A DNA stretch of 64,000 nucleotides, from positions 100,008-164,007 of the forward strand of contig CAZAMB010000005.1 in NCBI GenBank assembly GCA_964486335.1. Reading direction: 5' to 3'. The notes under the pieces were generated by a model that saw only the letters and a list, made by a program, of their open reading frames with translations, searched no databases and was not told where the DNA came from. Below are positions 2,330-53,566 of the stretch, piece by piece. Made by a program: the position numbers and the translations under genes. Positions within the stretch are counted from its first letter, which is position 1; each line of letters starts with the position of its first letter. The stretch comes from an uncultured Phycisphaera sp. (GTDB lineage Bacteria > Planctomycetota > Phycisphaerae > UBA1845).

Positions 2330-2411
2330 CAACGCTCACGAAATTGTCGTACAAGTTGATACGACGATCTCTGTTCCCTCGCATTCGCTCTGCTTGAGAG
2401 CAGTTGGCAAC

Positions 2412-3030: not shown

Positions 3031-3158
3031 ATGGACTCATCCGGTTTTGAGGGTTCGTTTCTGACCTGCTCCCCCGGTGGGTTGGACCCTTGAGTCAATT
3101 CCCGTCCGCGAAGTCCGCGAAACACGTCGTTGTGTTTGTTTGTCAGGGCGTCGAACAT
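3027..3158 (-). pseudogene. Duplicated ffh 5' remnant forming a 43-codon leader ORF upstream of the PIN gene
   Basis: The ATG at 3158 gives MFDALTNKHNDVFRGLRGR (compare Ffh MFDVLTNKLNDVFRGLRGR). It then diverges to ELTQGSNPPGEQVRNEPSKPDESI and a stop. The stop TGA (3027-3029) overlaps the PIN TTG start (3028-3030) in the string ATTTGA. Confidence 0.6.
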
Positions 3159-3218
3159 TAAGGAATGTTGTACGGCCGCACCGAGCCAATGGTCAAGATG
3201 CTATAGGGGGCGCGGACG
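3106..3218. repeat. Direct repeat copy 2 of the ffh start and upstream region
   Basis: See 2223-2329. The offset is 883 nt and gap-free through the start codon. Confidence 0.85.
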
Positions 3219-3258
3219 AAAATCAGCAGGACACGGTCGCGGTGATTATTCCGGATGA

Positions 3259-6270: not shown

Positions 6271-7821
6271 GTGATTTTGTTTTGGATGACTTCGATCGCT
6301 TTCGTTGTTTCCACCTTGGCGCTCGCGCTCTACGGGCTGCACCTTTATGCGCTGCTATACCTTTTTCGACGGCGCGCATCCCAGAAGAACAATGAACAGC
6401 AACGGACGATAGAGACTTACGAAAAAGATCGAAAGCCCGACGATTGGCCGGTCGTCACCACGCAGATTCCGATCTACAACGAAAAAGATGTCATTCATCG
6501 CGTATTGACGGCGGTTGCCGGCATGGACTATCCGCCGGGAAGGCACGAGATTCAGGTACTCGATGACAGCGACGACGACACGAAGTTCATCGTCGACGAT
6601 CTTGTCGCGAGCCTTCGAGCACGCGGCGCGGATATCAAGGTGATTCGCCGCCCAACCCGAATGGCGTACAAGGCCGGAGCGCTCGCGCACGGACTAACGA
6701 CCGCGCGGGGAACGTATGTCGCCGTGTTCGACGCTGATTTTGTTCCGCCCAAGGGATTCCTTCGCACGGCCATTCCGCTGATCGATTCGACGCCGAACCT
6801 TGCCTGCATACAGGGTCGGTGGGCGCACCTCAACCGAGATGAATCCTGGCTGACCGAATCCCAGGCGCTGGGCATTGACGGCCATTTCGCGATTGAGCAG
6901 GGCGCCCGCGCGTGGAACGGACTCATGATGAATTTCAACGGAACCGCCGGCGTATGGCGGAAAGCCGCCATTGACGACCCCAGCGTAGGGGGCTGGAGCG
7001 GGGACACGCTGACGGAGGACCTAGATCTCTCGTATCGCGCTCAGCTGGCCGGCTGGAAACTGGACTATTGCCTGAATCTCCCCTGCCCGGCCGAACTGCC
7101 CAACTCGGTCGGCGCGCTCAAAAGCCAACAGCGCCGCTGGGCGACAGGGTCCATCCAGGTGGCGATCAAGCTGCTGCCGAGAATCTGGCGCGCGCCCGTT
7201 TCGATGGCCGAGAAACTCGAGGCCACGCTGCATCTGACGCATTATTCGGTCGCCGTCTGGATGCTGATCCTGGCGCTGGTCGCGCGCCCGATGCTGCTGG
7301 CGATCGTCGACGCCCGATTGTTCACGCAATGGGCGTGGTTTGCCTGGGGCGCCATTTATTTCTCGGCGTTGGCGCCGTCTCTCGTTTATGTCTACGCCCG
7401 ATACAGTCTCGAAGGCCGATGGTCTGGCATCCGGACCATTCCGGGCATGATGATTCTGGGATGCGGATTCTGTGTCAACAACACGCTGGCGGTCCTTCGC
7501 GGATTGACCTTGCAGGGCGGGGAGTTCGTGCGAACGCCAAAGTCCGGTAGCGTCGGAACAACAGTAAAGCGATCCAGCTATTCAACAATGCAATCCAACA
7601 TGTGGCTCATCGAAATCGGTTTGGGGCTTTATTCGTTCGCTTCCTTTGTAATCTATCTCACGGCGGAATTACGAGCGTTCAGCGTATTCCTTTTGCTCTA
7701 CGCGATCGGACTCACTCTGACCGGATGGCTTTCTCGCCCCGAACGATTCGGAAAGGTCCTTTTGCAAACCGATATCGTCGGAAGTGCGGCGTCCATGCAA
7801 CCCGCCGTCGTGGAGCCATGA
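6271..7821 (+). CDS. Family 2 glycosyltransferase, processive (cellulose-synthase-like) type, membrane-embedded
   Basis: 516 aa. Motifs present: DDSDD, FDADF, TEDLDLS and QQRRWATGS (the D,D,D,QxxRW signature). Transmembrane segments flank the catalytic domain. Confidence 0.85.
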   Translation: MILFWMTSIAFVVSTLALALYGLHLYALLYLFRRRASQKNNEQQRTIETYEKDRKPDDWPVVTTQIPIYNEKDVIHRVLTAVAGMDYPPGRHEIQVLDDSDDDTKFIVDDLVASLRARGADIKVIRRPTRMAYKAGALAHGLTTARGTYVAVFDADFVPPKGFLRTAIPLIDSTPNLACIQGRWAHLNRDESWLTESQALGIDGHFAIEQGARAWNGLMMNFNGTAGVWRKAAIDDPSVGGWSGDTLTEDLDLSYRAQLAGWKLDYCLNLPCPAELPNSVGALKSQQRRWATGSIQVAIKLLPRIWRAPVSMAEKLEATLHLTHYSVAVWMLILALVARPMLLAIVDARLFTQWAWFAWGAIYFSALAPSLVYVYARYSLEGRWSGIRTIPGMMILGCGFCVNNTLAVLRGLTLQGGEFVRTPKSGSVGTTVKRSSYSTMQSNMWLIEIGLGLYSFASFVIYLTAELRAFSVFLLLYAIGLTLTGWLSRPERFGKVLLQTDIVGSAASMQPAVVEP

Positions 7822-7854
7822 TCGGCAGATCGTCGATTCAGTTCGGAAATATCG

Positions 7855-8964
7855 TTAGTCTTTTTCGGAAGCCTGGATTGGTACGGGGAAGTTCTTTCGC
7901 AACAATCCGGACGGCGCCTGTCCGACCGTAACATAGCCGTCTCTTTCGATCTTCCCCAGAATCGCGTTGAGACTGGCCATGGCGTCGCTGAATCGCTGGA
8001 GAGAAAGGACGGCGGCTTCGTAAAGGCGGGGATCGCGGACAAGAAGTCCCGCCGTTCCCTTTCCTTCTTCCACCTGTCGAAGCGTGCTCGCGAGGCTCCG
8101 GGTTCCATTGTCAAGATTGTCGAGCACCTGGTTGAGCTTTCCAAAGGAACGGTCGAGGTTGGCTTCCGTCGTGTCAATCCCTGTGTTGAGATTGTCGGAA
8201 AGCCTCTGGGTCTGCGATCTCCACAGTTCCATCGTTTCCTTCAATGTTTCCGCGGACGCCTTCAGGTCATGCACGACGCCCTTCACGTCGCCTTGCACAT
8301 TCACATCACCGAGCACGACATTGAGATTGGCTACAAGCTGGTCGATTCGCTCGACGACGGTCGAAAGGTTCGGCGTTGTGGTCGCCCCGGGTTGTTCCAC
8401 CTCGGCAACCGTCCGCCGTTCAAGCAGGCGATTCATGTTGCGAGCCACCGGCGTCGCCTCGCCCGCGAGGTCTCCGATGTTGTTGATCATTCGCTGGACG
8501 GAATCCACCATATCGCGCGTGATGAACTCTCCGATCATGCTGCGCATTTCGCCGTGGATCTGCGCATCTTCCTTGGGAAGCAGCTTTCGATCGCCGCCCG
8601 GTTCAACGAAGATCTCCACCCGACCGACACCGAAGCCGAGCGTCGCGCCGTACAAGCGGGCGACCGCGCCCTGCGGAATCGAATACTGCGACTTGATCCC
8701 GGCCACCACGACGACGCCGAGATCAGGCCGCTCCGGATCGCCGAATTGAAGATCCTTGACGCGTCCGATTTCAACCCCGTTGAGCTGGATTGGCGTGCCT
8801 TGCGAGATGCCCCGCAATTCGCGCGCGCCGGTGATTTCCAGTCGCCACTCGTTGCCGCCCAGCCACTCCGGCGTTTCACCGAACCACGCCATCAATGTCG
8901 CCAGCACGATGAGCGACGCCGCCACGAATGTCCCCACGGCCATGTTGCGCTTGGTTTCAGTCAT
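7855..8964 (-). CDS. mlaD: MCE/MlaD-family protein
   Basis: 369 aa. An N-terminal transmembrane segment is followed by an MCE domain (GISQGTPIQLNGVEIGRVKDL). It is last in the operon with the ABC ATPase and permease. Confidence 0.85.
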   Translation of the reverse strand: MTETKRNMAVGTFVAASLIVLATLMAWFGETPEWLGGNEWRLEITGARELRGISQGTPIQLNGVEIGRVKDLQFGDPERPDLGVVVVAGIKSQYSIPQGAVARLYGATLGFGVGRVEIFVEPGGDRKLLPKEDAQIHGEMRSMIGEFITRDMVDSVQRMINNIGDLAGEATPVARNMNRLLERRTVAEVEQPGATTTPNLSTVVERIDQLVANLNVVLGDVNVQGDVKGVVHDLKASAETLKETMELWRSQTQRLSDNLNTGIDTTEANLDRSFGKLNQVLDNLDNGTRSLASTLRQVEEGKGTAGLLVRDPRLYEAAVLSLQRFSDAMASLNAILGKIERDGYVTVGQAPSGLLRKNFPVPIQASEKD

Positions 8965-9782
8965 TTCGATTCCTCGGCCTGCAAGGTCCTGAGAACCTCG
9001 GGCGAACAGCGACCCTCCACGAACCGGCGTACGCGCGCATCCTCGCTTCGATCGATGGCATCGGGCGATCCGTCAAAAATGAACCTTCCGCGAAAGAGCA
9101 TCACGATTCGGTCAGCGACCTTGCGAGCGCTGGCCATGTCGTGCGTCACGACCACACTCGTGACCGACAGCTCCCGCTTCAACTTGATGATCAATTCGTT
9201 GATCTCATCCGATCGCGGCGGATCAAGCCCTGTCGTCGGCTCGTCATACAAGATGACCTCCGGTTGCAGCGCGATGGCCCGAGCGAGCGCCACGCGCTTT
9301 TTCTGCCCGCCCGACAACTGTGCCGGCCACTTCGATTGAAGACCGTCCAGGCCCACCATGGCGAGCCGCTCCTTCACGATGCGATCAACCTCCGAACGCC
9401 TCTTGCGCGTATGTTCGAGCACCGGAAAGGCGACGTTTTGTCCCACCGTCATCGAATCGAACAACGCGCTGAGCTGAAAAAGATACCCGAATCGCGGTCG
9501 CAACTCAGCGAGTTTTCTTTCCGAGAGCTGATCGATCCGATCCTCGTGAAAATAGACCTCGCCACGATCAGGAGTCAACAACCGAACAATGTGGTTGAGA
9601 AGGACGCTCTTGCCCGATCCTGATTCGCCGATGATGACCGTCGTTTGTCCCGGCGTAAGGGCCAGATCGACACCCTCCAGAACCACCAGATCTCCAAACC
9701 GTTTGTGAACGCCGACCAATCGCACGATCGGGGCCGCGTGGCTGGAAGAAGGCGCGGAACTTGTGCAGATTCGGTCGATCAT
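8961..9782 (-). CDS. mlaF: ABC transporter ATP-binding protein (MlaF-like)
   Basis: 273 aa. Walker A GESGSGKS, signature LSGGQKKR and Walker B ILYDEPT are present. It has 4-nt overlaps with both neighbours. Confidence 0.9.
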   Translation of the reverse strand: MIDRICTSSAPSSSHAAPIVRLVGVHKRFGDLVVLEGVDLALTPGQTTVIIGESGSGKSVLLNHIVRLLTPDRGEVYFHEDRIDQLSERKLAELRPRFGYLFQLSALFDSMTVGQNVAFPVLEHTRKRRSEVDRIVKERLAMVGLDGLQSKWPAQLSGGQKKRVALARAIALQPEVILYDEPTTGLDPPRSDEINELIIKLKRELSVTSVVVTHDMASARKVADRIVMLFRGRFIFDGSPDAIDRSEDARVRRFVEGRCSPEVLRTLQAEESK

Positions 9783-10621
9783 CGAACGAGCGATTTGAAT
9801 CCGTAGACTCCCCGATACAACCCCGAAAGGAAGTAACCGACAAAAAAATCGGCGACAAGGATCGTGATGAAACTGACCACGAACGACTCCGTGCAGGCTC
9901 GTCCCACGCCTTCAGCGCCGGTCCGGCAATGAAATCCCTTGTAGCACGCGATCAGTCCGATGGCCCCCCCGAAAATGAAGCTCTTGGTGAATCCCACCAT
10001 CAAGTCCCATTTCTCGATTGCATTTTCGATGTAATACCAATAAGGCGAGGCCGGGATATTCTTGAGGTACACGGCGATGAACCAGCCCGCCAATGACCCG
10101 CATAGGTCGCAAAACACCGTCAGCAGCGGCGTCAACAGCAGGCACGCAAGGAATCGGGGAACCACCAGATAACGTACCGGATCGGCCCCCATCACCGTAA
10201 GCGCGTTGATCTGGTCGGTGACCCGCATGGTTCCCAATTCGGCCGTCAGCGCGCCGCCCACACGCCCCGCGACCATGACCCCGGCCAAAACCGGACCGAG
10301 CTCCTGAACGAGAGACAGCGTGACCAAGACCCCCATGCGCTGCTCGAACCCGGCTGCTTTTAATTGATCGTAACTTTGAATGGCTAGAACCAGGCCGACG
10401 AATGTACCCGTGACGGCAATGACCGGGACGGTCCGATTCCCGACCTCGTAGAAAAGTGGCATGGTTCTCGTCCAGGTGCGGAGTTGGATCACGCCCGGAA
10501 GAAGCCAGCGAATCATCTGCCAGGTGAACAGGCCGAACCGACCCAAAGCGGATAGCGTGCCGATCGTCCTGGAACCGACGAGGTCAAGCATCTGAGGGAT
10601 CCGTTTGCGATCAAGAATCAC
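9779..10621 (-). CDS. mlaE: ABC transporter permease (MlaE-like)
   Basis: 280 aa polytopic membrane protein of MlaE/Ttg2B style (LVQELGPVLAGVMVAGRVGGALTAELGTMRVTDQI). Confidence 0.88.
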   Translation of the reverse strand: MILDRKRIPQMLDLVGSRTIGTLSALGRFGLFTWQMIRWLLPGVIQLRTWTRTMPLFYEVGNRTVPVIAVTGTFVGLVLAIQSYDQLKAAGFEQRMGVLVTLSLVQELGPVLAGVMVAGRVGGALTAELGTMRVTDQINALTVMGADPVRYLVVPRFLACLLLTPLLTVFCDLCGSLAGWFIAVYLKNIPASPYWYYIENAIEKWDLMVGFTKSFIFGGAIGLIACYKGFHCRTGAEGVGRACTESFVVSFITILVADFFVGYFLSGLYRGVYGFKSLVR

Positions 10622-14716: not shown

Positions 14717-15076
14717 ATGAAACGCTGGGCAGTTTATCTTCGCGGCATTCTCGTCCTGCTCGTCGCGGGCGCGATCGGCCTTGTCCTGTTTCAGAACCGC
14801 TCTTACAAGGTCAACTTGTGGTTCTTTGGATTGACCGACGCGAGCAAGCAGGTAAACGTCGTTTGGGTGATGGTCTGGACGGCTGGTTTCACCCGCGCCG
14901 CTTGGTGGCTTTTTTCATTCGGACGGGGATTGATCCGCGACGTTCGTGAGCTTCGGCGAAATAACGCTTTGGTCGCGACGGAGCAGGCGTATGCGAAACG
15001 CGCTGCCGAGTTGGACGAGCGTGAACGGCTGATTGAGGAAAGAAAACGCCGGTCAGAAACGACGAATGACGAGTGA
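14717..15076 (+). CDS. Small membrane protein (LapA/DUF1049-like) with charged C-terminal helix
   Basis: These are the last 119 codons of ORF 13949..15076. MKRWAVYLRGILVLLVAGAIGLVLF is one transmembrane segment, followed by a second, then a coiled charged tail. The upstream part of the long ORF overlaps pilD in another frame and is discounted. Confidence 0.5.
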   Translation: MKRWAVYLRGILVLLVAGAIGLVLFQNRSYKVNLWFFGLTDASKQVNVVWVMVWTAGFTRAAWWLFSFGRGLIRDVRELRRNNALVATEQAYAKRAAELDERERLIEERKRRSETTNDE

Positions 15077-28659: not shown

Positions 28660-29400
28660 ATGAAAAACGGATTGAATATCGTCCTGACAAACGATGACGG
28701 TTACGACGCGCTGGGGCTTTTGACGGCCTATAACGCGCTGGCGGAATTGGGGACCGTTCACGTTGTGGCGCCGCGGGCGGAGCGATCGGCGTGCAGCCAT
28801 ACGATCACGTTGCGGAACCCGATCACCGTAGAGCGTCGAACGCACGAACGATTCGGAGTGAGTTTCGCAGTGGACGGCACGCCGGCGGATTGCATTCGGC
28901 TGGCCGTTGCGGGGCTTGTTGAACCACCCATCGACATGGTGGCGTCGGGCATCAACCACGGAGCCAACGCAGGCGTGGACGTGTTTTATTCCGGAACGGT
29001 GGCGGGCGCTCGAGAGGGAGCGATTCTGGGCATTCCATCGATTGCGCTGTCTCAGGCGCTTCGGCAGGATGTCGCCGTTGATTGGAGCGCAGCCGGAACT
29101 GCGACGGGTATCGTGGTCCGAAGACTGGCGACCGAAACGCTGGAGGGGCCGGGGTTTTGGAGCGTTAATTTTCCGTCGCCGATCCCGACAAGCCCCGGTG
29201 ACCACATTCAGCGCGTTCCGCTGGCAATCCATCCGATGCCGATGCGATTCAACCGATCAGAGCGAGAGAACGGACGGGTGCTTCAATTCGATTACGGGGC
29301 ATCGTACTGGCTTCGCGACGTGACGGGTCCAAGCGACTATAGCGTCATTCGGGACGGCGGCATTGCGGTGACGGCCGTGCCGCTATACGGGCGCTTTTGA
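28660..29400 (+). CDS. surE: 5'/3'-nucleotidase SurE
   Basis: 246 aa. NIVLTNDDGYDALGL...VVAPRAERSACSHTITL...SGINHGANAG..VFYSGTVAGAREG. Confidence 0.92.
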   Translation: MKNGLNIVLTNDDGYDALGLLTAYNALAELGTVHVVAPRAERSACSHTITLRNPITVERRTHERFGVSFAVDGTPADCIRLAVAGLVEPPIDMVASGINHGANAGVDVFYSGTVAGAREGAILGIPSIALSQALRQDVAVDWSAAGTATGIVVRRLATETLEGPGFWSVNFPSPIPTSPGDHIQRVPLAIHPMPMRFNRSERENGRVLQFDYGASYWLRDVTGPSDYSVIRDGGIAVTAVPLYGRF

Positions 29401-29424: not shown

Positions 29425-29976
29425 TCAAACGGATTCGTTCTTGCGAACACCGAATGCGAATCGCAGCCGCGGCGGTCGGAGCCAGCCTGCCTGGGACGCC
29501 CCGGAAAGAAACAGGAATCCAACGCCGATGCCGATCAAGGACAATGGTGTGGTCCAAAGTGACGTCGGGTCATCGAACAACCAGCAACTGGGGTTCGCGG
29601 GGTCATAAAGAACCGTGGCAACGCGGTCCTCGGCAACGTTCTTCCAACGAACGAAACCCTTGCTGCGGTAGTTATGCCTTGAGAAGCGGCTTTGATGAAC
29701 GATCCTGCGGTGGCCGGCGGTGAAAATGACGGTTCGGTAGGCTCGACGACAGAATCGAACTTTTTGATGCCAAGGCTCGATGACTTCGTCGGAAGATCGG
29801 AGAATGTGGTCCATATAGGTAATTATGGCTTCGGTCCGGTATCCGAAACCACACAGTCTTGACGTGAGATACAGCCGGTACACTCCATAGGAAGCGACAA
29901 CCGCAGCCAGGACCAGATAGTAGCGTTGCAGCGGACCTGTGAGAGTCAGGTCCAGTTTCCTGCGTTTGGCTTTCAT
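29425..29976 (-). CDS. Hypothetical membrane protein (DUF3592-like architecture)
   Basis: 183 aa. An N-terminal transmembrane segment is followed by a beta-rich middle part and a C-terminal transmembrane segment. The family assignment is tentative. Confidence 0.5.
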   Translation of the reverse strand: MKAKRRKLDLTLTGPLQRYYLVLAAVVASYGVYRLYLTSRLCGFGYRTEAIITYMDHILRSSDEVIEPWHQKVRFCRRAYRTVIFTAGHRRIVHQSRFSRHNYRSKGFVRWKNVAEDRVATVLYDPANPSCWLFDDPTSLWTTPLSLIGIGVGFLFLSGASQAGWLRPPRLRFAFGVRKNESV

Positions 29977-30143
29977 GAAGTAATCCTACGATTCCTGCAC
30001 TGATCAGCGTGCGGATTCGACACCGTTCTTCTCGGACGCGGCGCTTGGCGTGCATCGATCCTCTGCTCAGGATCGACGTGAACCGTGCGGAGTGGTAGGT
30101 TTCCGGGAAGCGCTCGACGACGAAAAAGCATTAAGGAGGAACC

Positions 30144-31274
30144 ATGGCAGCGAGAACGGGAACCGGGAAGTCAACGACCAAGCGAAACGGAGCAGCCGAC
30201 GTTCGACTCGAAGCAATGGCAAGGGCCGTCGCGGACATGGCGTTTCGCAAGAAGGACCCTGAATTGTTCATTCCGGCTCGCTTGCTGAGCAATGTCGCGT
30301 TCAACGAAAAGACGCGGCACATCGAGATGGGCGACAACAAGCAGTCGCGGAGCTTCTTCAACTACGGTCAGGCGAAGCGGTTCATGCAGACGATGCTGGT
30401 GGCGAGCAAGTGCAAGGAACTGATCGAGCGCGGGAAGACGGCCAGCATTCGTCAGATCTACTACCTGTCGAAGCACACGATCAAAGGGACGAACGAGAAG
30501 ACTTTTGACGATCAGGCGGAGTCGGACCCGATCATCGAAGATGTCGAGGTCGCGATCGACACACTCCGCGAGGAATTGCACGTCTTCGCGAGCAATCGCG
30601 GCAATCTTGTCGGGCCGGTGACGCTGGTCGATGCGGGGAACACGCTGGACTGCACGGCGATGGGATCGGCGGGTTACGCGGTGCCGAGCATCTGCGAGCC
30701 GGACGTGATCCAGTTCAAGAAGTGCAATGCGAAGTTCATCCTGCACGTCGAAAAGGACACGGTGTGGCGGCGGTTCCATGAGGATCGGTTCTGGGACAAG
30801 CACCAATGCATCGTTTCGCACGGCGGCGGACAGCCCGCGCGCGGCATGCGCCGGCTGCTACGGCGGATGCACGAGGAACTCAAGTTACCGGTATTCGTGC
30901 TGCTCGATAACGATCCTTGGGGGTACTACATTTACTCGGTCATCAAGCACGGCTCGATCAATCTGGCGTATGAGTCGAGGCGGATGGCGATCCCGGACGC
31001 GAAGTTCATCGGCGTTTCGAGCTTTGACTACGACCGCTGCGAGATGAACGACGACGTGAAGATCGAGCTCGACGCGACGGACATCAAGCGTGCCAAACAG
31101 ATCGCGGCCTATCCGTGGTTCGAGAAGAAGCGGGAGTGGCAGCGGGAGTTCAAGAAGATGCTGGCCAACGGGTTCAAGATGGAGGTTGAAGCGATGATCT
31201 CCAAAGATCTTGAATACCTGACGGGCGAGTACGTGCCGATGAAGCTGAAGGACAAGAAGCAGTGGCTGGATTAG
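30144..31274 (+). CDS. top6A: Type IIB topoisomerase subunit A (Top6A/Spo11-like)
   Basis: 376 aa. The CAP/winged-helix region has SIRQIYYLSKH (catalytic Tyr context). The Toprim Glu lies in FILHVEKDTVWRRF and the acidic DxD in PVFVLLDNDPWGYYIYSVIKHGSINLAYES. GGGQPARGMRRLLRRMHEEL matches the conserved Top6A segment. Confidence 0.85.
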   Translation: MAARTGTGKSTTKRNGAADVRLEAMARAVADMAFRKKDPELFIPARLLSNVAFNEKTRHIEMGDNKQSRSFFNYGQAKRFMQTMLVASKCKELIERGKTASIRQIYYLSKHTIKGTNEKTFDDQAESDPIIEDVEVAIDTLREELHVFASNRGNLVGPVTLVDAGNTLDCTAMGSAGYAVPSICEPDVIQFKKCNAKFILHVEKDTVWRRFHEDRFWDKHQCIVSHGGGQPARGMRRLLRRMHEELKLPVFVLLDNDPWGYYIYSVIKHGSINLAYESRRMAIPDAKFIGVSSFDYDRCEMNDDVKIELDATDIKRAKQIAAYPWFEKKREWQREFKKMLANGFKMEVEAMISKDLEYLTGEYVPMKLKDKKQWLD

Positions 31275-31321: not shown

Positions 31322-32680
31322 TCAGCTTTCGCGCGATGGTCTCGTTGGCGAACTTGTTTCGGAGTGCGCTGTCCCTTCTCCAATCATTTTTTCCGCGATT
31401 CCGCGAGTAAGCTTGCGAAGGTCGATCCCGAGAACGGACTCGATCGTCGCCAGCGATTCGGAGAGCATTCTGGCCCGACTCAGCGCGGCCCCGGCAATCG
31501 CCCGGCCATCGCCTCCGTCGATGACGGTTACGTCACCCAGCTCCACCGTGGACACCGTCTTGCAGAGTTCGCCGACGACGCCCGGCAGCATTTCGGCAAG
31601 AAGGACGGTTAGTGCTTCCGGGTGTTCGTGAATGGCTGCGCCGATGCACTCAATCGCCGCGGCGCGGGCCTTGCCTTCTTCGAGGATCATCGCGGCCGCG
31701 CCTTCGGCCTTCGCCTTGGCCGTATCACGATCGGCGTTGGCTTGTTTAACCTGCGTGGCAATGAGTCGAGCCTCCTCCGCCTGCGCGGCGGCTTCCTGCG
31801 CTTGGGCTTCCTTCATGGCGGCTTCGCGAGCCAGTTCGGCCTGTCGCATGCGAAGGGCGTTGTTGGCTTCGGCGATGGACTTTTCGGCGCTGAGCCGCGC
31901 CGCTTCGGCCGTTTGATGTCCTTTGGCTTCAGCGGATCGCGCCTCGGCATCGCGCTCCGCGCGAGCCCTGCGCGCCTGAGCGTCGGCCTCGGCTTCCTTA
32001 ATGTCCGCTTCTGATTTGCGGGCTGCCTCAAACTGGCGCGCATTGGCACGAACTTCGGCGGACGCTTTTCGAGCAATGGACTCAAGGTATTGCTCATCGT
32101 CATGCACATTCTGAATATTCACGCTATCGATCACCATGCCGAGCTTACGGAAATCGTCGTTGACTTCGTTCATGACGGTGGCGACGAACTTGTCTCGGTC
32201 TTCGACAATTTCCTCGGGCGTCATCTTGCCGATCACCGCGCGAAGGCCTCCTTCGAGCGTTTCACGTGAAACACGCTCCAGCTCCACCTGGGGCTGACCA
32301 AGAAATCGCTCGATCGCGCTGCAGCGAATTTCCGGATCAGAGGAGACCTTGACATTGGCGACGCCGGTTACCGTGATCGGAATCATCTTGCCGCCGCCGG
32401 ATTGGGCCTTGACTTCTAGGCCGACCTGCATGTTGCGCAGGCTGAGCATCGCTACCTTCTCGATGATTGGTACGACGACGGTGCGTCCGCCGATCAACGT
32501 GCGGTAGCCGACGTTGTTCGACGCGCGTCGCCCACTGATGACCAGCAATTCACTGGGATTCCCGACGACTGTGAATTTGGCCACAAGCGTCAACAAGGCA
32601 ATGATCAAGAGAAGCACGCCCATCCCGATCAAGATGCCGGTTGCGGCGTCGCTTGTCTGTGCGAGAATCGTGGTGCTCAT
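31322..32680 (-). CDS. Flotillin / SPFH (band 7) family protein
   Basis: 452 aa. An N-terminal transmembrane segment is followed by an SPFH domain, a long Ala/Glu-rich coiled coil (EA repeats) and a flotillin-type C-terminus. Confidence 0.9.
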   Translation of the reverse strand: MSTTILAQTSDAATGILIGMGVLLLIIALLTLVAKFTVVGNPSELLVISGRRASNNVGYRTLIGGRTVVVPIIEKVAMLSLRNMQVGLEVKAQSGGGKMIPITVTGVANVKVSSDPEIRCSAIERFLGQPQVELERVSRETLEGGLRAVIGKMTPEEIVEDRDKFVATVMNEVNDDFRKLGMVIDSVNIQNVHDDEQYLESIARKASAEVRANARQFEAARKSEADIKEAEADAQARRARAERDAEARSAEAKGHQTAEAARLSAEKSIAEANNALRMRQAELAREAAMKEAQAQEAAAQAEEARLIATQVKQANADRDTAKAKAEGAAAMILEEGKARAAAIECIGAAIHEHPEALTVLLAEMLPGVVGELCKTVSTVELGDVTVIDGGDGRAIAGAALSRARMLSESLATIESVLGIDLRKLTRGIAEKMIGEGTAHSETSSPTRPSRES

Positions 32681-33345
32681 GGACGTCCTCCCGTTGCCGG
32701 TTCCGTAATGAACTCGTGCTCTTTTGTGGAAACAACTTCCGCCAGTCCCGCGGCGTACCCTGCGATCACCACCTTCTCGCCAGCTGGGAACCGCTCGTCG
32801 CCACGCCGGGCTTTGGCGGCAACATAGCGCTCACCGGGCCCGACCTTCACGGCAACTTCCCCACGACGACCCGGTTCTATAGTCATCGTGACACGGGCCG
32901 GTTGATTGACGAAATCACCGGAATGAGACTCGCTTCCAACGCCCGAACGCTTCAACCATCTCAGAAGCTGATGTACCGCTTGGCCCGCGATCAGCCCAGA
33001 AACTGCCGCGATCCAGATCACACGATTGGCCCTGCCGCGACCGACAAATGTCATTGTCGTTCCGACGAGTCCAAACACCGCCATGAAATAAACGACAAGC
33101 TGCATGGAGAACCAGTTGGTCAACGACAGCGGCGAGGAACTTTTCAATGGGGCAACGTCGTGGTGCGGGCCGTGATGCGACAGATCATGATTGAAATCTC
33201 CGGCGGACACATCGCCGGAAAAGTCCGTCGAAGTCGCCCCGTCCACATCGACCTCCCCGGTCCCACTTCCGGAAAAGAGAGTCGAAACGAGCAGCAGCCC
33301 GCCGCCGACAATCAAGCAGATGATGTAGAGACTTGTCATGACCAC
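32677..33345 (-). CDS. NfeD/YqiJ-like membrane protein
   Basis: 222 aa. Transmembrane segments are followed by a C-terminal OB-like NfeD segment (GRRGEVAVKVGPGERYVAAKA...GEKVVIAGY). It overlaps the flotillin gene by 4 nt, the classic NfeD-SPFH pairing. Confidence 0.7.
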   Translation of the reverse strand: MVMTSLYIICLIVGGGLLLVSTLFSGSGTGEVDVDGATSTDFSGDVSAGDFNHDLSHHGPHHDVAPLKSSSPLSLTNWFSMQLVVYFMAVFGLVGTTMTFVGRGRANRVIWIAAVSGLIAGQAVHQLLRWLKRSGVGSESHSGDFVNQPARVTMTIEPGRRGEVAVKVGPGERYVAAKARRGDERFPAGEKVVIAGYAAGLAEVVSTKEHEFITEPATGGRP

Positions 33346-37305: not shown

Positions 37306-38175
37306 TTACGATCCAAACAGAACGTACCGCTGGTTCGGCTGGGCAAACCCGGCGAACTCACGGCTCACAAAGTTAAACGAAGGATCATCCCATTCGTCCG
37401 AGTAGTGATAAAGGTATGTCCGCTTGCGCACCGCTTCAGGCAGCGTTCGCAAGTCCTTCAAGGATGCGTGGATGGGTTCGAGCGAATCTTCAAGCTGGAC
37501 ATCGTGGAAAATGATGCAAGCGCGGTCCATCCGTCCGCCGAACCCGGCTCGGTCGAACCGCGTGTCTCCTGAGTAGATGGCCAGAGAGCCGGTCGATGCG
37601 TCGCGCATCGACACGCCAAAACTGGGCCAATCGAACTGACGCTCCACGCGAATGTGATCGGTGGGGAATAGACCCAGCTCAAAACGCTCCATCATCGTCA
37701 ACGGACGTTCTTTGTCGTTGACGTCAAGCGGCTTCGGCGCAAAGTAATCTTCCAGTGAAGCCTGCCGGCCGTTGAGCGAACCGAGACCGCCCCGAAGCGA
37801 ATGCTCCCAAAGCGACCGAATCAGCTCAGCCGATCCGAACAACTCAGGGCGACGCGTTTCAGCGCAGCGAGCGAAGCGGATGATGGATGCCCATTCCTCG
37901 AGTCCGCCAATATGGTCGGCGTGCAAGTGGGTAATGATGACGCCGCGAAGTGCAGAATAACAGATGTTTCCGCCGCTACCGAGATAGGAAAACTCCGGCA
38001 TGTCCTTTAACCTATGCAGAGCGAGCGGCCCGGTTGCGCCGAAGTCGATGAGCAGGGCGTCGTCAGGTCGATCCTGCTTGTCGGGACCGGATGCCCATGC
38101 TTCAATCAGCGCGCTGGATTGCAGATTGCGTTTCGCGAAGGCGGAACCAACGCCGAGAAACGTGAGCGTAAGCAC
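37306..38175 (-). CDS. MBL-fold metallo-hydrolase
   Basis: 289 aa. LTFLGVGSAF is followed by the metal motif ITHLHADHIGG. Confidence 0.82.
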   Translation of the reverse strand: MLTLTFLGVGSAFAKRNLQSSALIEAWASGPDKQDRPDDALLIDFGATGPLALHRLKDMPEFSYLGSGGNICYSALRGVIITHLHADHIGGLEEWASIIRFARCAETRRPELFGSAELIRSLWEHSLRGGLGSLNGRQASLEDYFAPKPLDVNDKERPLTMMERFELGLFPTDHIRVERQFDWPSFGVSMRDASTGSLAIYSGDTRFDRAGFGGRMDRACIIFHDVQLEDSLEPIHASLKDLRTLPEAVRKRTYLYHYSDEWDDPSFNFVSREFAGFAQPNQRYVLFGS

Positions 38176-42309: not shown

Positions 42310-42381
42310 GCGGGTGTAGCTCAGTGGTAGAGCGTCACGTTGCCAACGTGAATGTCGAGGGTTCGAGCCCCTTCACCCGCT
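42310..42381 (+). tRNA. tRNA-Gly (anticodon GCC)
   Basis: GCGGGTG-TA-GCTC-AGTGGTA-GAGC-G-TCACG-TTGCCAA-CGTGA-ATGTC-GAGGG-TTCGAGC-CCCTT-CACCCGC-T. The cloverleaf was folded by hand. The T-stem has one G-T pair. Confidence 0.92.
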
Positions 42382-47447: not shown

Positions 47448-48604
47448 GACCTGACTCCTTGGTTTAGGGACAAAGTGGAACCGTAAGATTCCCCGGCGGC
47501 TGAATTCTCGAGTTTCAATTGGCGTGCGCGCGCCAGCGCTTGGCACGCTGAACTGATGTCAATTGGGTTGTGATCGGCGTTGATCAGAAAGGCGATGTTT
47601 GCCCGTGCAGGTCTTTGAACCGAAAGCAGTACCGTTTGGACCCCCATACCCCTAAGCCGACCGGTCATTCTCCTTGCTTCGCCTGACGACCGAAACGACA
47701 ATATCTGCACAGGGAAGAGTCCCGGAGATGGCGTGAATCCTGCCGATCGTGTTCCGGCACGAAATCGTCGTACATTGGAGAGGAGCTGCGATCGTCGTGA
47801 GTTGCCGATGCGCTCGTTGGCCGTCAGCGCGTTCGTGGCAGCCCTGATGGACGCCTGGGAAGGCGGACTGCAATGAACTCGAGTCTCGCTGCGCGTTGCA
47901 AACTGCTCGACAATGTCACCGCGACTCGACAGAGCGGCCACCGGCGCTCCGAATCCCTTGGCCAGGGAACTGATCAAGACCAATTCCTTCGCGCGAACGC
48001 CCCACCACTGGGAGCTTCCGCCTCCGCCTAGCCCATACGGCATTGTTCGCGTCGGTCGCGCGCCAAGAACGCCAAGCGCTTGAGTGTCATCTACGACAAC
48101 AAGACCCTTCACGGCTCGCATCTGACGAAGATAGCTTGTAAGAGGTGCAACCCGTCCGCATCGCATACAGGAACCATCAACGACAACCACCGGACGTGAT
48201 GCAGGCCCGCCAGCATCCTGAAGTGATCGACGCAATGACGAAGGGCAATAGTGCCGAAACGTCTGGACAGACGCGCCGCGCGCCGCCGCCCGTTCCAGTC
48301 CCCAGCGTCCGATGGGATAAAGTCCGCTATCCATGAAAAACCGTGCCCCTTCGTCGGCGAGCATGCCGAGGAAGTCCCAAAACAAGTGTAACGTCGAAGT
48401 TCCAAGCAAAGCCGCTTCACAGCCTTGCAGGTCGGCCAACAATTGGGCGACCCGCTTCGCCTCAGCTGACTCATCAAGTGCCGCAGGTCGGCCGGTCGTC
48501 AACTGCTCCCACGATCCCAGCGCCGAACTCGGGTGCCGCATGCCCAGATACTGGGCCGAGGTAAAGTCAAGCACTGGATGATTTCCGTCAACGACCTCTG
48601 CCAC
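47444..48604 (-). CDS. PLP-dependent class I/II aminotransferase-fold enzyme, alpha-oxoamine-synthase-like
   Basis: 386 aa. LDFTSAQYLGM, VVDDTQALGVLG and SLAKGFGAPVA (putative PLP Lys) parallel the AONS/serine-palmitoyltransferase motifs. Confidence 0.7.
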   Translation of the reverse strand: MAEVVDGNHPVLDFTSAQYLGMRHPSSALGSWEQLTTGRPAALDESAEAKRVAQLLADLQGCEAALLGTSTLHLFWDFLGMLADEGARFFMDSGLYPIGRWGLERAAARGASVQTFRHYCPSSLRRSLQDAGGPASRPVVVVDGSCMRCGRVAPLTSYLRQMRAVKGLVVVDDTQALGVLGARPTRTMPYGLGGGGSSQWWGVRAKELVLISSLAKGFGAPVAALSSRGDIVEQFATRSETRVHCSPPSQASIRAATNALTANERIGNSRRSQLLSNVRRFRAGTRSAGFTPSPGLFPVQILSFRSSGEARRMTGRLRGMGVQTVLLSVQRPARANIAFLINADHNPIDISSACQALARARQLKLENSAAGESYGSTLSLNQGVRS

Positions 48605-50261
48605 CCGTCAATTGCGATTGCAGCCGTTGGCTTAATAGCACTGAAGGCATGGTCGCATTCACCATTCCACTCACCGGCTGAGCTGTCAGATCAACACCCG
48701 TAGCCGCGCGGTAAGCATGGAGGTAACCCTGAATTTCCGGCTTCCAATATCGAGCCCATGTTCGAGCGTGTTCCTGGTCTGTTAGGACATTCCAGTTTCC
48801 ATACCGGATCGAGAGCAGAATCCGTTCTCCGAGGACGCCCAAATCGCGAAAATGGGTGACCGTTACGTCGCTCCAACCCTGAACTCGTTTCATCGCGTCC
48901 ACGCGGCCCATCCACGGTTCCGCATAGGGCACCATGATCCGAGTGCCGAGGAATTCGCGCATTTCGGGTCGGGACAACAACCACTGCTGCATCATCATCT
49001 CGACTCGCGCTGTCCACGGCAGATCCCCGAATTGATTGTGCGCCCCTTGGGCAAGCAGCAAATGGACTTCCTTTAGCGCGTTGAGAAGAGGGAACCCGTC
49101 GGAAATCACGGTCGTGTCCGAGTCTTCCTGAAAAAACACGGAGCTGCGATACAAAAGATCGTGAAATGCTTCGAGAAACTTTGAACGGTTGTCGGCCGGA
49201 CGCATGGTCGAAACGGCCTTGCCCGCGAGCGCCAGTCCGTAGTGGTGGCTATACTCATAGGCTCGGCGAGGAACCGTGAGGCGATGGACTTCGTCCTGGA
49301 TGTACCCCCAAAGAAAGTTGTTGAGTGGCCTCAGCGGATCGATTTCCAACTCGGCCAATGGGTCGCGACCTGCGCCGCGCCGTTTGTTCTGGAATCGAAG
49401 GCTGATGGCGTTCAATGTTTGCGCCAACATCCCTTCTTCGTGCCAATACGACCAGATCAGTTCCAGCAGGCATGGACAAGAAGATTTCGCGCAGAGGATT
49501 TTCCCGTCACAGAAGGCCGAGGTAGCCGTCTGTTCTCGCCAATTCTCACCGAAGGCAGCGGTTAGAATCGTGTTCAAGTAATTGATATCCTTCGTTCGCA
49601 AGTAACTCGCCAGCTTGTCGCTAATGTCCTTCAGGGTGCCGCCCGGCAATGGGAAGTCATCCTCCAGACGTTTGACTTCAGATCCGGGGTCATCCTTTTC
49701 ACCCCATCCTTCGGTCTCGGCGCATGCGCATGGATCGCAATTACTCTTTTCACCTGCTTCTTGTTGTTTCTGAGCAGATGCGCCTTCGCGTGTTGTCGAT
49801 TCCGGATCGTCGGGTTTACGATAACAGGGATCAGGCTTTTTCTTTTCGGGGTCCAGAAACTCATCAGGATGCATTCCCTTTTGAAACGGCCCGCATGTGC
49901 AGCCGCAGCGGATGAGCAAAAACGTCTCCGTGGCCGTCTTCAAAAGGTCGTAGGCGTCCATGCCGTGGATGCAGGGTTCCTTGCTCAAACTTTCTCGCAG
50001 CCTTCGTTCCGGGCAGCAGTCGGGATCTTTGGTGTCTTTGTCGCAGAGCACTCGATCAATAAACTTCGCGTATTCCGAGAACGATGTCCGTTCCGAAGCA
50101 GTCCGAATCCACATCCATAACGGATACGTGTCGTCCCGTTTGAGCGGGGATCTCGAAAGCGAAAAGGTGCCGGACGCCGGCTTGGCAAAATCGCCAGAAA
50201 CACTTACCTTGACTCCCTTCGCCAGCTCTTTACCTTCAACAATAATCTTTCCTTCAGCCAT
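48588..50261 (-). CDS. Hypothetical 557-aa protein, Cys-rich N-terminal half, no recognisable family
   Basis: This long ORF is in operon context. About 15 Cys residues lie in clusters (DCCPE, CGCTCG, CDPCAC, CAKSSCPC), all in the N-terminal half. The C-terminal ~285 aa contain no Cys. Confidence 0.8.
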   Translation of the reverse strand: MAEGKIIVEGKELAKGVKVSVSGDFAKPASGTFSLSRSPLKRDDTYPLWMWIRTASERTSFSEYAKFIDRVLCDKDTKDPDCCPERRLRESLSKEPCIHGMDAYDLLKTATETFLLIRCGCTCGPFQKGMHPDEFLDPEKKKPDPCYRKPDDPESTTREGASAQKQQEAGEKSNCDPCACAETEGWGEKDDPGSEVKRLEDDFPLPGGTLKDISDKLASYLRTKDINYLNTILTAAFGENWREQTATSAFCDGKILCAKSSCPCLLELIWSYWHEEGMLAQTLNAISLRFQNKRRGAGRDPLAELEIDPLRPLNNFLWGYIQDEVHRLTVPRRAYEYSHHYGLALAGKAVSTMRPADNRSKFLEAFHDLLYRSSVFFQEDSDTTVISDGFPLLNALKEVHLLLAQGAHNQFGDLPWTARVEMMMQQWLLSRPEMREFLGTRIMVPYAEPWMGRVDAMKRVQGWSDVTVTHFRDLGVLGERILLSIRYGNWNVLTDQEHARTWARYWKPEIQGYLHAYRAATGVDLTAQPVSGMVNATMPSVLLSQRLQSQLTGGRGR

Positions 50262-50285
50262 GATTTTCTCCTTCGTTCGACGGGA

Positions 50286-51614
50286 CTATGAGGCCCGTGC
50301 GATTGTTTTCTGTGTTCGACCGACGAAAACCCTGCTCCGCGAACAACGGACACAAGCGCCAAACGTGCTTCGAAGCGCCCAATGACTGAGCAATCCACTC
50401 ACGAGGCGACTCTCTTCAACCGGATTGAGGACGCCGTACGCTTTTGCTTGTCCCAATACGGCGAACACAAGCGACTCCGGAGCGGCCCGCAACTGTTCTG
50501 GAAATCGTCGCCAGGTCTGAAAGAGTCTCATTAGGCGATGTGGTTGCCGCTCCTCGACACCGAGGACTTCCCCCAGAGACAATCCCCTGAGAGACTTCGG
50601 TCGATGATGTGTCAACAACGCCACAAAACCAGGAATGCTTGCCTGTAACGCGTTGAATAGCGCGAAACGTCTTGGGTCAAGCTGCGTTGGCGGATAAAAC
50701 GCGTCCCACATCCTCGCGAAATGTTCCCATTGCGGATGTGGATAGAGCGCTTGTCCGACCGCACAACTGAGCTTGACCCTGATCCACGGGCTTGGGTGCG
50801 GATCGTCAAGGTTGATTCGAAAAACGAATCCACGCGGCAGACTGACTACACTCATCAATCCCATGGTGGACGTGATGCCCAACTTCGCCACGGACCAGAA
50901 GTCGGCAACAACCTCGGAAATCCACCGCTCCCAGGCCAGCCACGCAAACGCTTCTGCGCTCCCTTTCTTCCGCATTCCCAGAAGAATTGGCCGGAAGGAC
51001 GGAACCAGTTTCAGCAGTTCCGCTGCCTGATGACCGACCTCGTGGACCAAAGACGATGCGATTCCGCTGCCTACCATTCTCTCCCGCGGCACGCGGATAA
51101 TGGCAACGGGATTGCGCCCGCCCGTGGGCATCCGCGTTCGCGCCCGCCGTATCGCCGCGCCGGGTCCGCGGTCCAGGTAACAAATCACCGGCGGTTCCGA
51201 GTAGTAGCCGCCACCAAGGTGCAATGCATCGGCGGCAAACGCATCCAGTCCGGATAGCCAGATTCCCGTTTCATGTTCGCTGCGTTGAGTGATTGCATCC
51301 GCAAACAGATCAAGATCCGAAAGGACGGCGTTGAACCGCAATCGGAGGAGTACGAATCGCCGCTGCGCTTCCTCGGCGGAGGACAACCGCCCATTCGAAC
51401 CCTCAAGCCACGCCAGAAATGCAACGACTTGTTCCCGCAAATTGCGTCGCCCTTGAAGCAAGTACCCGTCGATGGCTCTTTGCGCGGTTGAGGAAATCGC
51501 CGCGGCGGTTACCGAAGTGATTTGCAGCGCGAATGGCTTCACGATAGCCAGTCGTGTCAGCAGGGCACGGGCTTCCTGCGCAAGAAAACAAGTTGTGTTG
51601 GAACGCATGGACAC
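50286..51614 (-). CDS. Hypothetical 442-aa protein with HExxH motif (putative zinc metallopeptidase)
   Basis: The only motif recognised is SSLVHEVGHQAAELL. The rest is helical-looking sequence without a family I can name. Confidence 0.75.
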   Translation of the reverse strand: MSMRSNTTCFLAQEARALLTRLAIVKPFALQITSVTAAAISSTAQRAIDGYLLQGRRNLREQVVAFLAWLEGSNGRLSSAEEAQRRFVLLRLRFNAVLSDLDLFADAITQRSEHETGIWLSGLDAFAADALHLGGGYYSEPPVICYLDRGPGAAIRRARTRMPTGGRNPVAIIRVPRERMVGSGIASSLVHEVGHQAAELLKLVPSFRPILLGMRKKGSAEAFAWLAWERWISEVVADFWSVAKLGITSTMGLMSVVSLPRGFVFRINLDDPHPSPWIRVKLSCAVGQALYPHPQWEHFARMWDAFYPPTQLDPRRFALFNALQASIPGFVALLTHHRPKSLRGLSLGEVLGVEERQPHRLMRLFQTWRRFPEQLRAAPESLVFAVLGQAKAYGVLNPVEESRLVSGLLSHWALRSTFGACVRCSRSRVFVGRTQKTIARAS

Positions 51615-51620
51615 GACTTG

Positions 51621-52289
51621 TCAAACTCCCAACAGAATGATGCGCCGACCGCGGCGAATCCAGCGACCGCTCTGCCCCGCACTCGAAGTGCTCGCCAGCC
51701 CAGTGTTCATGAGGCCTGGCGCATGACGTTGAGCCGCGGCGGCCAGGGCCGACTTTGCGACGATTCGGGGATCAGTGGTATGTGGGGATGCGGCGGCGTG
51801 CTGAGCAGCGGCGCCGGCCAAGCGAACGAATCGTCGGGCGATTTCAAATTCCTGATCTTCGCCGCTGAGGCCCTCAAATTCCAAGCCAAACAGCTTGCCG
51901 GCCGCGGATCCGGCGGCACTTCCAAGCGCCGTTCCGACACCGGGGATCGGGATGAGTGACCCCAGGGCGCCTCCGGCAATCGGCAGAACCTTCTTGGCGA
52001 TGCCTTTGAGGATTCCGCCAAGCGGACGGAAAACGCGAGGAGCGATGCGCTTAATCCCCTTCCAGGCGCGCTTGAACAATTTGCCGAGGAATTCATCGAT
52101 TTCCTGGTCGCTCGACAATGTGAGCAGTTCGGAGGCGAAATCAACTTCTTCGTCCTGCGTAAATGGTCCCTCGCCGGTCCCGAAATCTCCAAATTCTTCG
52201 AAGACTTCAAAATCGCTCGTTTCACCGCCGAAACCATCGGTTTCCCCGGTGTCTTCGAAATACGTCTGAGTCTGGTCTATGTCGTGCAT
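51621..52289 (-). CDS. Hypothetical 222-aa protein: acidic N-terminus, cationic Gly-rich segment, C-terminal GRWIRRGRRIILLGV tail
   Basis: Residues 1-69 have no Lys or Arg and about 22 Asp/Glu. Residues 70-107 have 11 Lys/Arg and no acidic residues (KLFKRAWKGIKRIAPRVFRPLGGILKGIAKKVLPIAGG). A GxxxG-rich stretch follows. It is a paralogue of 52302..53126. Confidence 0.8.
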   Translation of the reverse strand: MHDIDQTQTYFEDTGETDGFGGETSDFEVFEEFGDFGTGEGPFTQDEEVDFASELLTLSSDQEIDEFLGKLFKRAWKGIKRIAPRVFRPLGGILKGIAKKVLPIAGGALGSLIPIPGVGTALGSAAGSAAGKLFGLEFEGLSGEDQEFEIARRFVRLAGAAAQHAAASPHTTDPRIVAKSALAAAAQRHAPGLMNTGLASTSSAGQSGRWIRRGRRIILLGV

Positions 52290-52301
52290 GTGTTTCTCCT
52301 C

Positions 52302-53126
52302 TTAAATGCCAAGTGCTACGATGGTGTGTCCCGTACGCATCCACCTGCCGTTACCGGGCCGATGAATGGCATAACTGATCCTTGATTCATCCTCGGTTTG
52401 GTCTTCCTCAGGTGCGACAGGAGGCTTGTTGCTTATGCCGAAACCTTGGTCGATCGAATCCTGAATGACGCTTCCACAATGTTGGGCACATGCCGCACAA
52501 TCGCACTCGATTGGCTCCACGGGTTCCGGCGCGACACCGGCGGCCGAACGTGCCCCACCATTGCTCGATGACGACGGAAAAGAAGATGGCATGGACGTTT
52601 GCGCAGGCCGTGTTCCGCTGTCGGTCGGAGGAAATTCCGGCCCATGGGATGGCTTTCCTGTGCGATGCCGCCATCTCCGTTTGCGTCGAAGCTGCTCGCG
52701 AAGAACGCGGAGTGCTGTTCTAATGGCAGGCAAAGCAGCATTTCTCGCGTGTTGTGTACGAGACAGCCGTCTCGCCAACCGACCTGCCAATCGTCCAAAC
52801 CGAACAGCTCGACGTGCTCTCTCAAGGTCCTCTTCATCCGTTTCGAACCCCTCAAGACTGCCATCAATGAACTCCCGAAATTGAGCGTTCAAAGACTCTG
52901 ACGGATCGCCCATGGGCGACGACGCGATGAAGGGTACCCGGCGAATGCCATCAATTGCGCTCTGTACTTGCGGCGTGATGAACTTGGCCAGACTATTCGT
53001 CGTTGAAGTGAGTGACTCCCCGCATTTGCCTAATGTCGCGAGCACAGCTCTGGCAATCTCGTTGCCACTGACCGCTCCTAGCAGGTCAATTGCCAGTTCT
53101 TCTTCGTTTTTTTGGCGATCGTACAT
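52302..53126 (-). CDS. Hypothetical 274-aa paralogue of 51621..52289 (tail NGRWMRTGHTIVALGI)
   Basis: It shares three segments with the downstream gene. Start region: EEELAIDLLGAVSGNE vs EVDFASELLTLSSDQE. Middle: EEDLERARRAVRFGRLAG vs DQEFEIARRFVRLAGAAA. C-terminal tail as in the call. The start is moved to Met 53126 because a sigma-54 promoter lies inside the 5' extension of ORF 52302..53291. Confidence 0.7.
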   Translation of the reverse strand: MYDRQKNEEELAIDLLGAVSGNEIARAVLATLGKCGESLTSTTNSLAKFITPQVQSAIDGIRRVPFIASSPMGDPSESLNAQFREFIDGSLEGFETDEEDLERARRAVRFGRLAGRLARRLSRTQHARNAALPAIRTALRVLREQLRRKRRWRHRTGKPSHGPEFPPTDSGTRPAQTSMPSSFPSSSSNGGARSAAGVAPEPVEPIECDCAACAQHCGSVIQDSIDQGFGISNKPPVAPEEDQTEDESRISYAIHRPGNGRWMRTGHTIVALGI

Positions 53127-53182
53127 AGCACAATTCAATTGGATTGGACTCGCGCATGGGTCCGAACTCAGCTGTGAAAGAA

Positions 53183-53198
53183 AGCAAGTTCCATGCCA
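53183..53198 (-). promoter_or_regulatory. Sigma-54 (-24/-12) promoter
   Basis: The minus strand reads TGGCATGGAACTTGCT, against the consensus TGGCAC-N5-TTGCW. The GG and GC dinucleotides are at canonical spacing. The motif lies 56 nt upstream of the ATG at 53126. An EBP with GAFTGA is encoded in the same island. Confidence 0.6.
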
Positions 53199-53227
53199 GA
53201 AAAACTGGGCCAATAATGGGCATTCTG

Positions 53228-53243
53228 GCGAAGTGTACTTCGC
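53228..53243. promoter_or_regulatory. Dyad GCGAA-N6-TTCGC (candidate enhancer/UAS 1)
   Basis: GCGAAGTGTACTTCGC has 7-bp perfect arms around a 2-nt centre. It lies about 30 nt upstream of the -24 element. Confidence 0.35.
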
Positions 53244-53268
53244 AACGACTGATGAACGGTGCAATTCA

Positions 53269-53284
53269 GCGAATCGCGCTTCGC
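53269..53284. promoter_or_regulatory. Dyad GCGAA-N6-TTCGC (candidate enhancer/UAS 2)
   Basis: GCGAATCGCGCTTCGC has the same 16-nt architecture. It is 41 bp (about four helical turns) from the first dyad. Confidence 0.35.
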
Positions 53285-53566
53285 CGATCATTCTGTTCGC
53301 TGTTGTCCAGTGAACGAAACAGGCCGAGGTGTTATGGGATTCCGTGGCCTGTGGTCAATGGTATTGGATAAGGCAACGAATCACTCGTTTCGAGGTGAAT
53401 CGGACGTTTAAAGTGACGAATCCTGACTTGATCCTACTCGATTGCTCCAATGCTGGGATGAATACTCATTTAACAGATCGCAAATGGCTCTTGGAAAGAA
53501 ACGTGGAAGGGGTTTCCGCATTCTCCGTAACTCTTTGGTTTTGCGCGGTTTAGAACTCGCTGCGTT

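Follow-up and report, generated by a model that had tools for sequence, protein, structure and literature searches.

An intact topoisomerase VI A-subunit gene without a nearby B-subunit gene in a Phycisphaerae genome

Topoisomerase VI (Topo VI) is an A2B2 enzyme. The 64-kb stretch of DNA analysed here, from an uncultured Phycisphaera sp. and referred to as the window, carries a full-length gene for the A subunit (top6A) and none for the B subunit (top6B), which raises the question of whether the encoded protein is one half of a Topo VI whose genes lie apart, or something else. The initial annotation of this DNA had named three possibilities: a B subunit encoded elsewhere, an orphan Spo11-like DNA-cleaving protein with another partner, and a horizontally acquired gene. 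Topo VI is known from 'some bacteria' (PMC8837201), and its presence there has been ascribed to an ancient lateral transfer from archaea, with three bacterial cases then known (PMC2647321).

The gene (30144-31274, forward strand) is an intact, ordinary Topo VI A-subunit gene of the Phycisphaerae (Planctomycetota), and the window holds a single copy. The open reading frame is exactly as annotated, with an ATG start, 376 codons and a stop; a Shine-Dalgarno-like AAGGAGG (30133-30139, forward strand) lies 4 nt 5' of the start codon. A 167-bp intergenic region (29977-30143) separates top6A from the divergent gene of a 183-aa membrane protein on the reverse strand and presumably contains the promoter of top6A. 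A promoter and terminator scan found no consensus sites around the gene, sigma-70 included, an outcome that is uninformative for this phylum. Pfam recognizes three domains: TP6A_N, the 5Y-CAP winged-helix domain (residues 78-147, 3.5e-18; 30375-30584), Topo_VI_alpha (residues 153-194) and TOP6A-Spo11_Toprim (residues 198-368, 5.2e-58; 30735-31247). The protein scores 535.1 bits against the NCBIfam equivalog NF003333, passing its cutoff of 465, and the closest solved structure in a PDB search is Top6A of S. shibatae (2zbk_A, E=1.9e-76). The description of a 376-aa protein with the hallmarks of Top6A was therefore accurate.

The residues expected to act in catalysis are all in place. Tyr107 (codon 30462-30464) is the second tyrosine of IYYLS and pairs with M. 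jannaschii Tyr103 in the alignment to 1d3y; the surrounding SIRQIYYLSKH (residues 101-111) holds both Arg103 and Tyr107, which gives the R-x-x-[YF]-Y context. Within the Toprim domain, the Mg2+ ligands are Glu203 (30750-30752), which belongs to HVEKDTVWRRF (residues 201-211), and Asp255 and Asp257 (30906-30914). The two other motifs named in the initial annotation, a conserved segment and an acidic cluster, map to residues 227-253 and 252-264, respectively. Tyr107, Glu203, Asp255 and Asp257 are conserved at 99-100% among 121 homologues (Tyr107 at 100%), and the window's protein has all of them intact. The segment that binds the B subunit in other Top6A proteins corresponds to 30216-30374, as judged from the alignments to M. 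mazei 2q2e_A, which starts at residue 6, and to 2zbk_A, which starts at residue 32, and from identity to the closest relative (L071, see below). Residues 41-100 are conserved at 71-89% within the clade, and by these alignments the B-binding N terminus is present and conserved. Near the C terminus, a conserved box (approximately residues 341-359; 31164-31220), ANGFKMEVEAMISKDLEYL, aligns with KLEIEAMASKGLKFL of S. shibatae and is of the Topo VI type, being neither the xWELDAL box of Mini-A proteins nor the RVELNAM of Topo VIII.

The archaeal enzymes (2ZBK_A, 2Q2E_A and 1D3Y) share with the window protein the order of N-terminal B-binding segment, 5Y-CAP, all-beta linker and Toprim domain, as well as the catalytic Tyr, Glu and DxD residues, with full-length alignments at E=1.9e-76 to 1e-46. 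Every feature of a Top6A protein that can be judged from its sequence is present. What sets the window apart from archaeal Topo VI is that the host is a bacterium and that the A and B genes are unlinked, as they also are in most close relatives. In archaea, top6B and top6A are described as always standing in tandem (PMC7671362), and the frequent split described below is thus a difference in gene order, not in the enzyme.

Homologues are abundant. Hundreds of proteins from Phycisphaerae and Planctomycetota are 80-93% identical to the window's Top6A, and among the best 120, at 79-92% identity, those with a name all come from Planctomycetota, Phycisphaerae or Phycisphaerales metagenome-assembled genomes (MAGs). 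Orthologues of 80-93% identity have the same length and domains and show no substantive difference; the window's Top6A is an additional member of a known enzyme family that is already represented in databases. For the exact protein, the only matches were short Logan contigs that keep the synteny of the window; SRR14787579 contains an identical contig of 10.6 kb (L001). A search of the GTDB species representatives with exact peptide patterns gave no 100% match. Both NCBIfam NF003333 and NCBI name these proteins 'DNA topoisomerase IV subunit A' when they are in fact Topo VI subunit A, and the misnomer has propagated to all MAG annotations that we saw (for example, MBI4717986.1 and UCE60505.1). 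We flag this as a systematic error in the databases. The searchable literature yielded no mention of Phycisphaerae together with topoisomerase VI, nor a discussion of a Topo VI that is conserved at 80-93% across a whole bacterial class beside gyrase.

No partner is encoded in the window. A tblastn search of the whole 64 kb with a clade-specific Top6B query (L007:7863-9806) gave a best E of 0.74, a profile hidden Markov model (HMM) trained on 120 Top6B sequences from Phycisphaerae gave a best E of 3.2 against the six translated frames, and none of the approximately 50 window ORFs scanned with Pfam contains an HATPase_c domain. The earlier statement that the window lacks a GHKL-ATPase gene is borne out, and the same tblastn and profile searches found no remnant of top6B. 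The immediate surroundings are unremarkable. Pfam confirms SurE (28660-29400, forward strand) and, as the reported flotillin, a Band_7/SPFH protein (31322-32680, reverse strand); the 183-aa small membrane protein (29425-29976, reverse strand) has a DUF3592 match below threshold only. The 222-aa protein encoded at 32677-33345 on the reverse strand has no Pfam match, which leaves its label NfeD unverified. Together with SurE and the SPFH protein, an FHA protein flanks top6A, and the window is otherwise housekeeping in character, with ffh, lpxD, mlaDEF, ispH, a prepilin peptidase gene, a pabB-like gene, miaB, clpS and rsgA. No viral or defence context was seen around top6A. A homologue of the 183-aa two-transmembrane protein, 46% identical, occupies the same position and orientation at L011 (9391-9906, reverse strand) and is missing at the other loci that carry top6A alone.

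Could the protein cleave DNA on its own, in the manner of Spo11 or Mini-A or as a defence nuclease, either alone or with a partner outside the GHKL family? The 64 kb without a GHKL gene would fit such a role, and Mini-A proteins are known that have no B partner (PMC7671362). Mini-A and Topo VIII share with the window's Top6A the 5Y-CAP and Toprim domains and the same catalytic residues, and Mini-A, too, has no B gene nearby. However, Mini-A proteins are approximately 300 aa long, are without the N-terminal half of 5Y-CAP, carry the xWELDAL box and come from viruses or proviruses; in Topo VIII, which is plasmid-borne, B and A are fused into one protein; and both are missing the N-terminal B-binding segment (PMC7671362). 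The window's protein, by contrast, has 376 residues and aligns over its full length with Top6A structures, its FKMEVEAMISKDL aligns with KLEIEAMASKGL of S. shibatae in place of a WELDAL-type box, and its gene lies in a housekeeping region in which the sole integrase is 22 kb away. PADLOC, applied to top6A and to the unassigned ORFs of the 45-60 kb region, returned a single weak match, that of top6A to the Wadjet nuclease JetD (24 bits, E=4e-6). This match spans profile positions 227-407 only and is confined to the Toprim fold that JetD/MksG nucleases and Top6A have in common, and no jetABC or SMC-like genes were found among the Pfam-scanned ORFs near top6A. Further arguments against a stand-alone cleaver are the passing of the Top6A equivalog cutoff, the 84-93% identity to A subunits whose genes adjoin a top6B, and the lack of viral or defence context. 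Finally, the loci with a solo top6A that we compared have no recurrent neighbour, which speaks against another conserved partner being encoded next to the gene. The idea of an orphan Spo11-like protein is thus not supported, in view of several lines of evidence, among them the conserved B-binding N terminus and the unaccelerated rate of evolution reported below, and we regard a stand-alone cleaver as extremely improbable. Plant Topo VI (SPO11-3/TOP6B) and meiotic Spo11 provide a different parallel, as in both an A-type subunit is encoded apart from the B-type partner with which it still cooperates. Both are eukaryotic paralogues and have additional subunits (PMC2647321); the window's protein resembles archaeal Top6A far more.

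To determine how top6A and top6B are arranged in relatives, we scanned JGI metagenome loci, annotated them by tblastn and classified each by the position of B relative to A: adjacent (a gap of 88-118 nt), gapped (an insert of 0.8-2.2 kb) or unlinked (B absent from at least 4.1 kb upstream). Seventeen loci whose A subunit is at least 80% identical to that of the window were decidable, 20 further loci at this identity being left out, and they comprise 4 adjacent, 3 gapped and 10 unlinked cases. The split arrangement is therefore the commoner state in the window's clade. In more distant bacterial clades (A subunits 59-75% identical), the genes are mostly adjacent, with 27 adjacent, 2 gapped and 8 unlinked loci. 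The premise that the two genes are usually adjacent in bacteria thus fails in the clade that matters here, in which A is conserved and 10 of the 17 loci are, like the window, without a linked B. On long contigs with a Top6A of 61-63% identity (L083, L085, L086, L088, L091 and L095), top6B was absent from the 5-10 kb upstream, which indicates that unlinked Topo VI genes are not limited to the window's clade. Operons are commonly scattered in Planctomycetota, and in this phylum the lack of a partner within tens of kilobases is no evidence for an orphan subunit; in the window's clade, the split state is the majority.

Where, then, is the B gene in these bacteria? At the linked loci L007 and L008 (A subunit 84% identical), a 647-aa Top6B with HATPase_c and Topo-VIb_trans domains is encoded directly upstream of top6A and adjoins dnaA-dnaN-gyrB; the same linked, origin-proximal dnaA / top6B-top6A form is found in L060-L062 and L066. 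A solo top6B occupies the site beside gyrB-dnaN-dnaA, with no top6A downstream, in L012, L013, L016, L017, L019 and L031-L033. At L027 and L028, too, the origin site holds top6B, and the contigs end just past the gene. Within the gyrB-(dciA)-dnaN-dnaA cluster, top6B is divergent from dnaA in L007, L012, L013, L016, L017, L019 and L024/L025, and the same divergent placement is seen in L027/L028, L031-L033, L051, L053, L060-L062, L066 and L067. L019 additionally carries, at 14763-14987, a short second C-terminal fragment of Top6B (residues 556-637, 56% identity), 3 kb downstream of the full-length gene. The placement of the Phycisphaerae gene recalls the adjacency of gyrase and Topo VI genes reported for Haloarchaea and Methanosarcina (PMC2647321), and the presence of gyrB next to top6B in relatives indicates that these bacteria possess both gyrase and Topo VI. 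In contrast to the B gene, which is typically found within this origin cluster, the A gene is repeatedly separated, a pattern whose discussion we did not find in the searchable literature. The solo top6A loci (L009-L011, L021-L023 and L029/L030) each have a different context.

Relatives in which a single MAG or a single contig carries both a solo A and a solo B provide the most direct support for a partner elsewhere. In GCA_016208685.1, A (MBI4717986; 88% identical to that of the window) is encoded on JACQXM010000032.1 and B (MBI4718196) on JACQXM010000036.1. On JACQFE010000033.1, B (74587-76599) lies beside dnaA and A at approximately 95681-96805, so the genes are approximately 19 kb apart on one contig. 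Same-contig occurrence of A and B had been considered as a proxy for adjacency and was dropped in view of this distance. Thus, a Top6B encoded in the same genome is found in JACQXM01 and JACQFE01 and is absent from the 64 kb of the window. The accessions of P0029 and P0236 are 242 apart. Co-occurrence by sample linked A and B in one case only, metagenome Ga0137429 (A in L036, B in L032), and no such link was obtained for P0003, P0149 and P0172, which come from different samples. By a rough congruence of neighbour-joining trees only, the window's A subclade would pair with an origin-proximal B cluster (P0149, P0154 and P0172). A search of genome contigs with a fused query of P0154 Top6B and the window's Top6A, using six exact 8-residue patterns, retrieved 11 loci and no B for the solo-A MAGs. 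Since A and B are often unlinked in the clade and B usually lies beside dnaA, the partner gene of the window's top6A very probably lies at another place in the genome and is only apparently missing. Its most likely site, by analogy with the relatives, would be the origin of replication, next to gyrB-dnaN-dnaA. The first of the three possibilities is the one that the relatives favour, and we hold it very likely that the gene encodes a bona fide Topo VI A subunit belonging to a split pair with B elsewhere.

The closest relative found, L071, is 93% identical in amino-acid sequence over residues 9-282 and retains a linked pair in the order top6B, hicA, hicB, a 148-aa ORF and top6A, with hicAB (2149-3299) inserted between the two subunit genes. 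Similar selfish modules recur at the B-A junction, where L006 has a NotI/D12 restriction-modification pair (8182-9943), and beside solo top6A genes, namely an IS200 transposase in L021 (9262-9888), a HicB-like antitoxin in L009 (8204-8416), a PemK toxin in L010 (11248-11592) and a DDE transposase in L011. Their presence suggests that the junction is susceptible to insertion and rearrangement. L006 is CP070744.1, a 5.67-Mb 'complete' Phycisphaerales MAG that shares the FHA-SurE-...-top6A synteny with the window (L006 6550-11143). Between SurE and top6A, it has a flagellin-like gene, a top6B remnant, the D12 methylase and the NotI endonuclease. The remnant (7661-8131) is an in-frame C-terminal stretch of 156 codons, 85% identical to the C terminus of P0130, its nearest full-length relative. 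No close full-length B from CP070744.1 appeared among the best 120 matches to P0130, where an N-terminal fragment of approximately 490 aa would score under the cutoff. CP070744.1 may be a genome that has no B, or its truncated gene may stem from a recent disruption, an inversion or an assembly error. The case indicates that loss or disruption of B can occur in the window's clade.

It follows that top6B might have been lost recently in the window's lineage, too, leaving Top6A as an intact relic that is without function or decaying, as perhaps in CP070744.1. The shared synteny, the truncated top6B and the inserted restriction-modification pair of that genome would fit this course of events, as would the missing full-length B among its best 120 matches and the window's lack of both B and a remnant. 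The sequence of the window's gene speaks against decay. It differs from the still-linked L071 at approximately 15% of nucleotides, yet amino-acid changes are not in excess: in Tajima's relative-rate test of the window against L071 with six outgroups (for example, changes of 5 versus 6, 4 versus 4 and 1 versus 5), the window's branch carries no excess (all P>0.1). Between the two, 96% of residues 25-100, which correspond to the B-binding part of 5Y-CAP, are identical. Pairwise dN/dS is 0.04-0.14 among solo and linked A genes, at a dS of approximately 1-2 that is near saturation. Solo A genes are therefore under purifying selection, with no acceleration of rate. A dN/dS of approximately 0.1 or less among the clade's solo A genes, the intact catalytic residues, the strong ribosome-binding site and the presence of B elsewhere in solo-A MAGs make a recent loss unlikely. 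That top6B was lost altogether while Top6A was kept under selection is a very unlikely variant. If true, a bacterial Top6A could dispense with a GHKL partner, or use an unrecognised one, and would be an analogue of Spo11 in prokaryotes.

The changing surroundings of solo top6A, which differ in almost every relative and often include mobile or selfish genes, could alternatively reflect a recent horizontal transfer of the gene into this locus without its partner. The gene is also identical among strain variants (0/1131 nt different) whose flanks differ by approximately 1%. On the other hand, the GC content of 0.60 at the locus is close to the approximately 0.58 of the window, the closest homologues all belong to the same clade, and the FHA-SurE-top6A synteny is common to a distant relative. 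Moreover, selection would not hold a transferred A gene at a dN/dS of approximately 0.1 if its matching B were missing. As a recent event, horizontal acquisition finds no support in a gene that is 80-93% identical to those of its clade and sits in housekeeping surroundings of normal GC, and we judge it highly improbable.

Under the favoured reading, a split pair with B elsewhere, a role of the window's Top6A as part of a Topo VI is the best-supported assignment of function. Two A subunits would cleave one duplex through Tyr107 and Toprim-bound Mg2+, as in archaea, and two GHKL-ATPase B subunits would capture another duplex and pass it through the break. The enzyme would most likely decatenate replicated chromosomes alongside gyrase; a preferential decatenase activity of Topo VI has been described (PMC8837201). 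The ancestral arrangement in the clade may have been dnaA / top6B-top6A, with the B-A pair split time and again through inserted selfish modules and rearrangements, and the window would contain one of the separated top6A genes, equipped with its own ribosome-binding site. Although the enzyme belongs to a known type, Phycisphaerae offer a natural system for the study of bacterial Topo VI.

The window shows several features besides top6A. The segment 42310-55340 has a lowered GC content (0.54-0.57), is flanked by tRNA-Gly (42310-42381) and tRNA-Arg (55248-55323), and contains a tyrosine integrase gene (53871-55340) that abuts tRNA-Arg, as well as a run of reverse-strand ORFs (48588-53291) with no match in Pfam or PADLOC; it is probably an integrated element. 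A metallo-beta-lactamase-fold protein (37306-38175, reverse strand) matches the anti-Pycsar Apyc1 family at 92 bits against a cutoff of 50. The strain variants that share an identical top6A with the window are the Logan loci L002-L005. They differ from it at 11/1326 nt in the FHA gene, at 9/741 nt in surE and at 4/552 nt in the 183-aa gene, where every change is non-synonymous, and the downstream Band_7 gene is mostly deleted in them. The zero divergence of top6A among these variants may reflect a recombination tract or a sweep.
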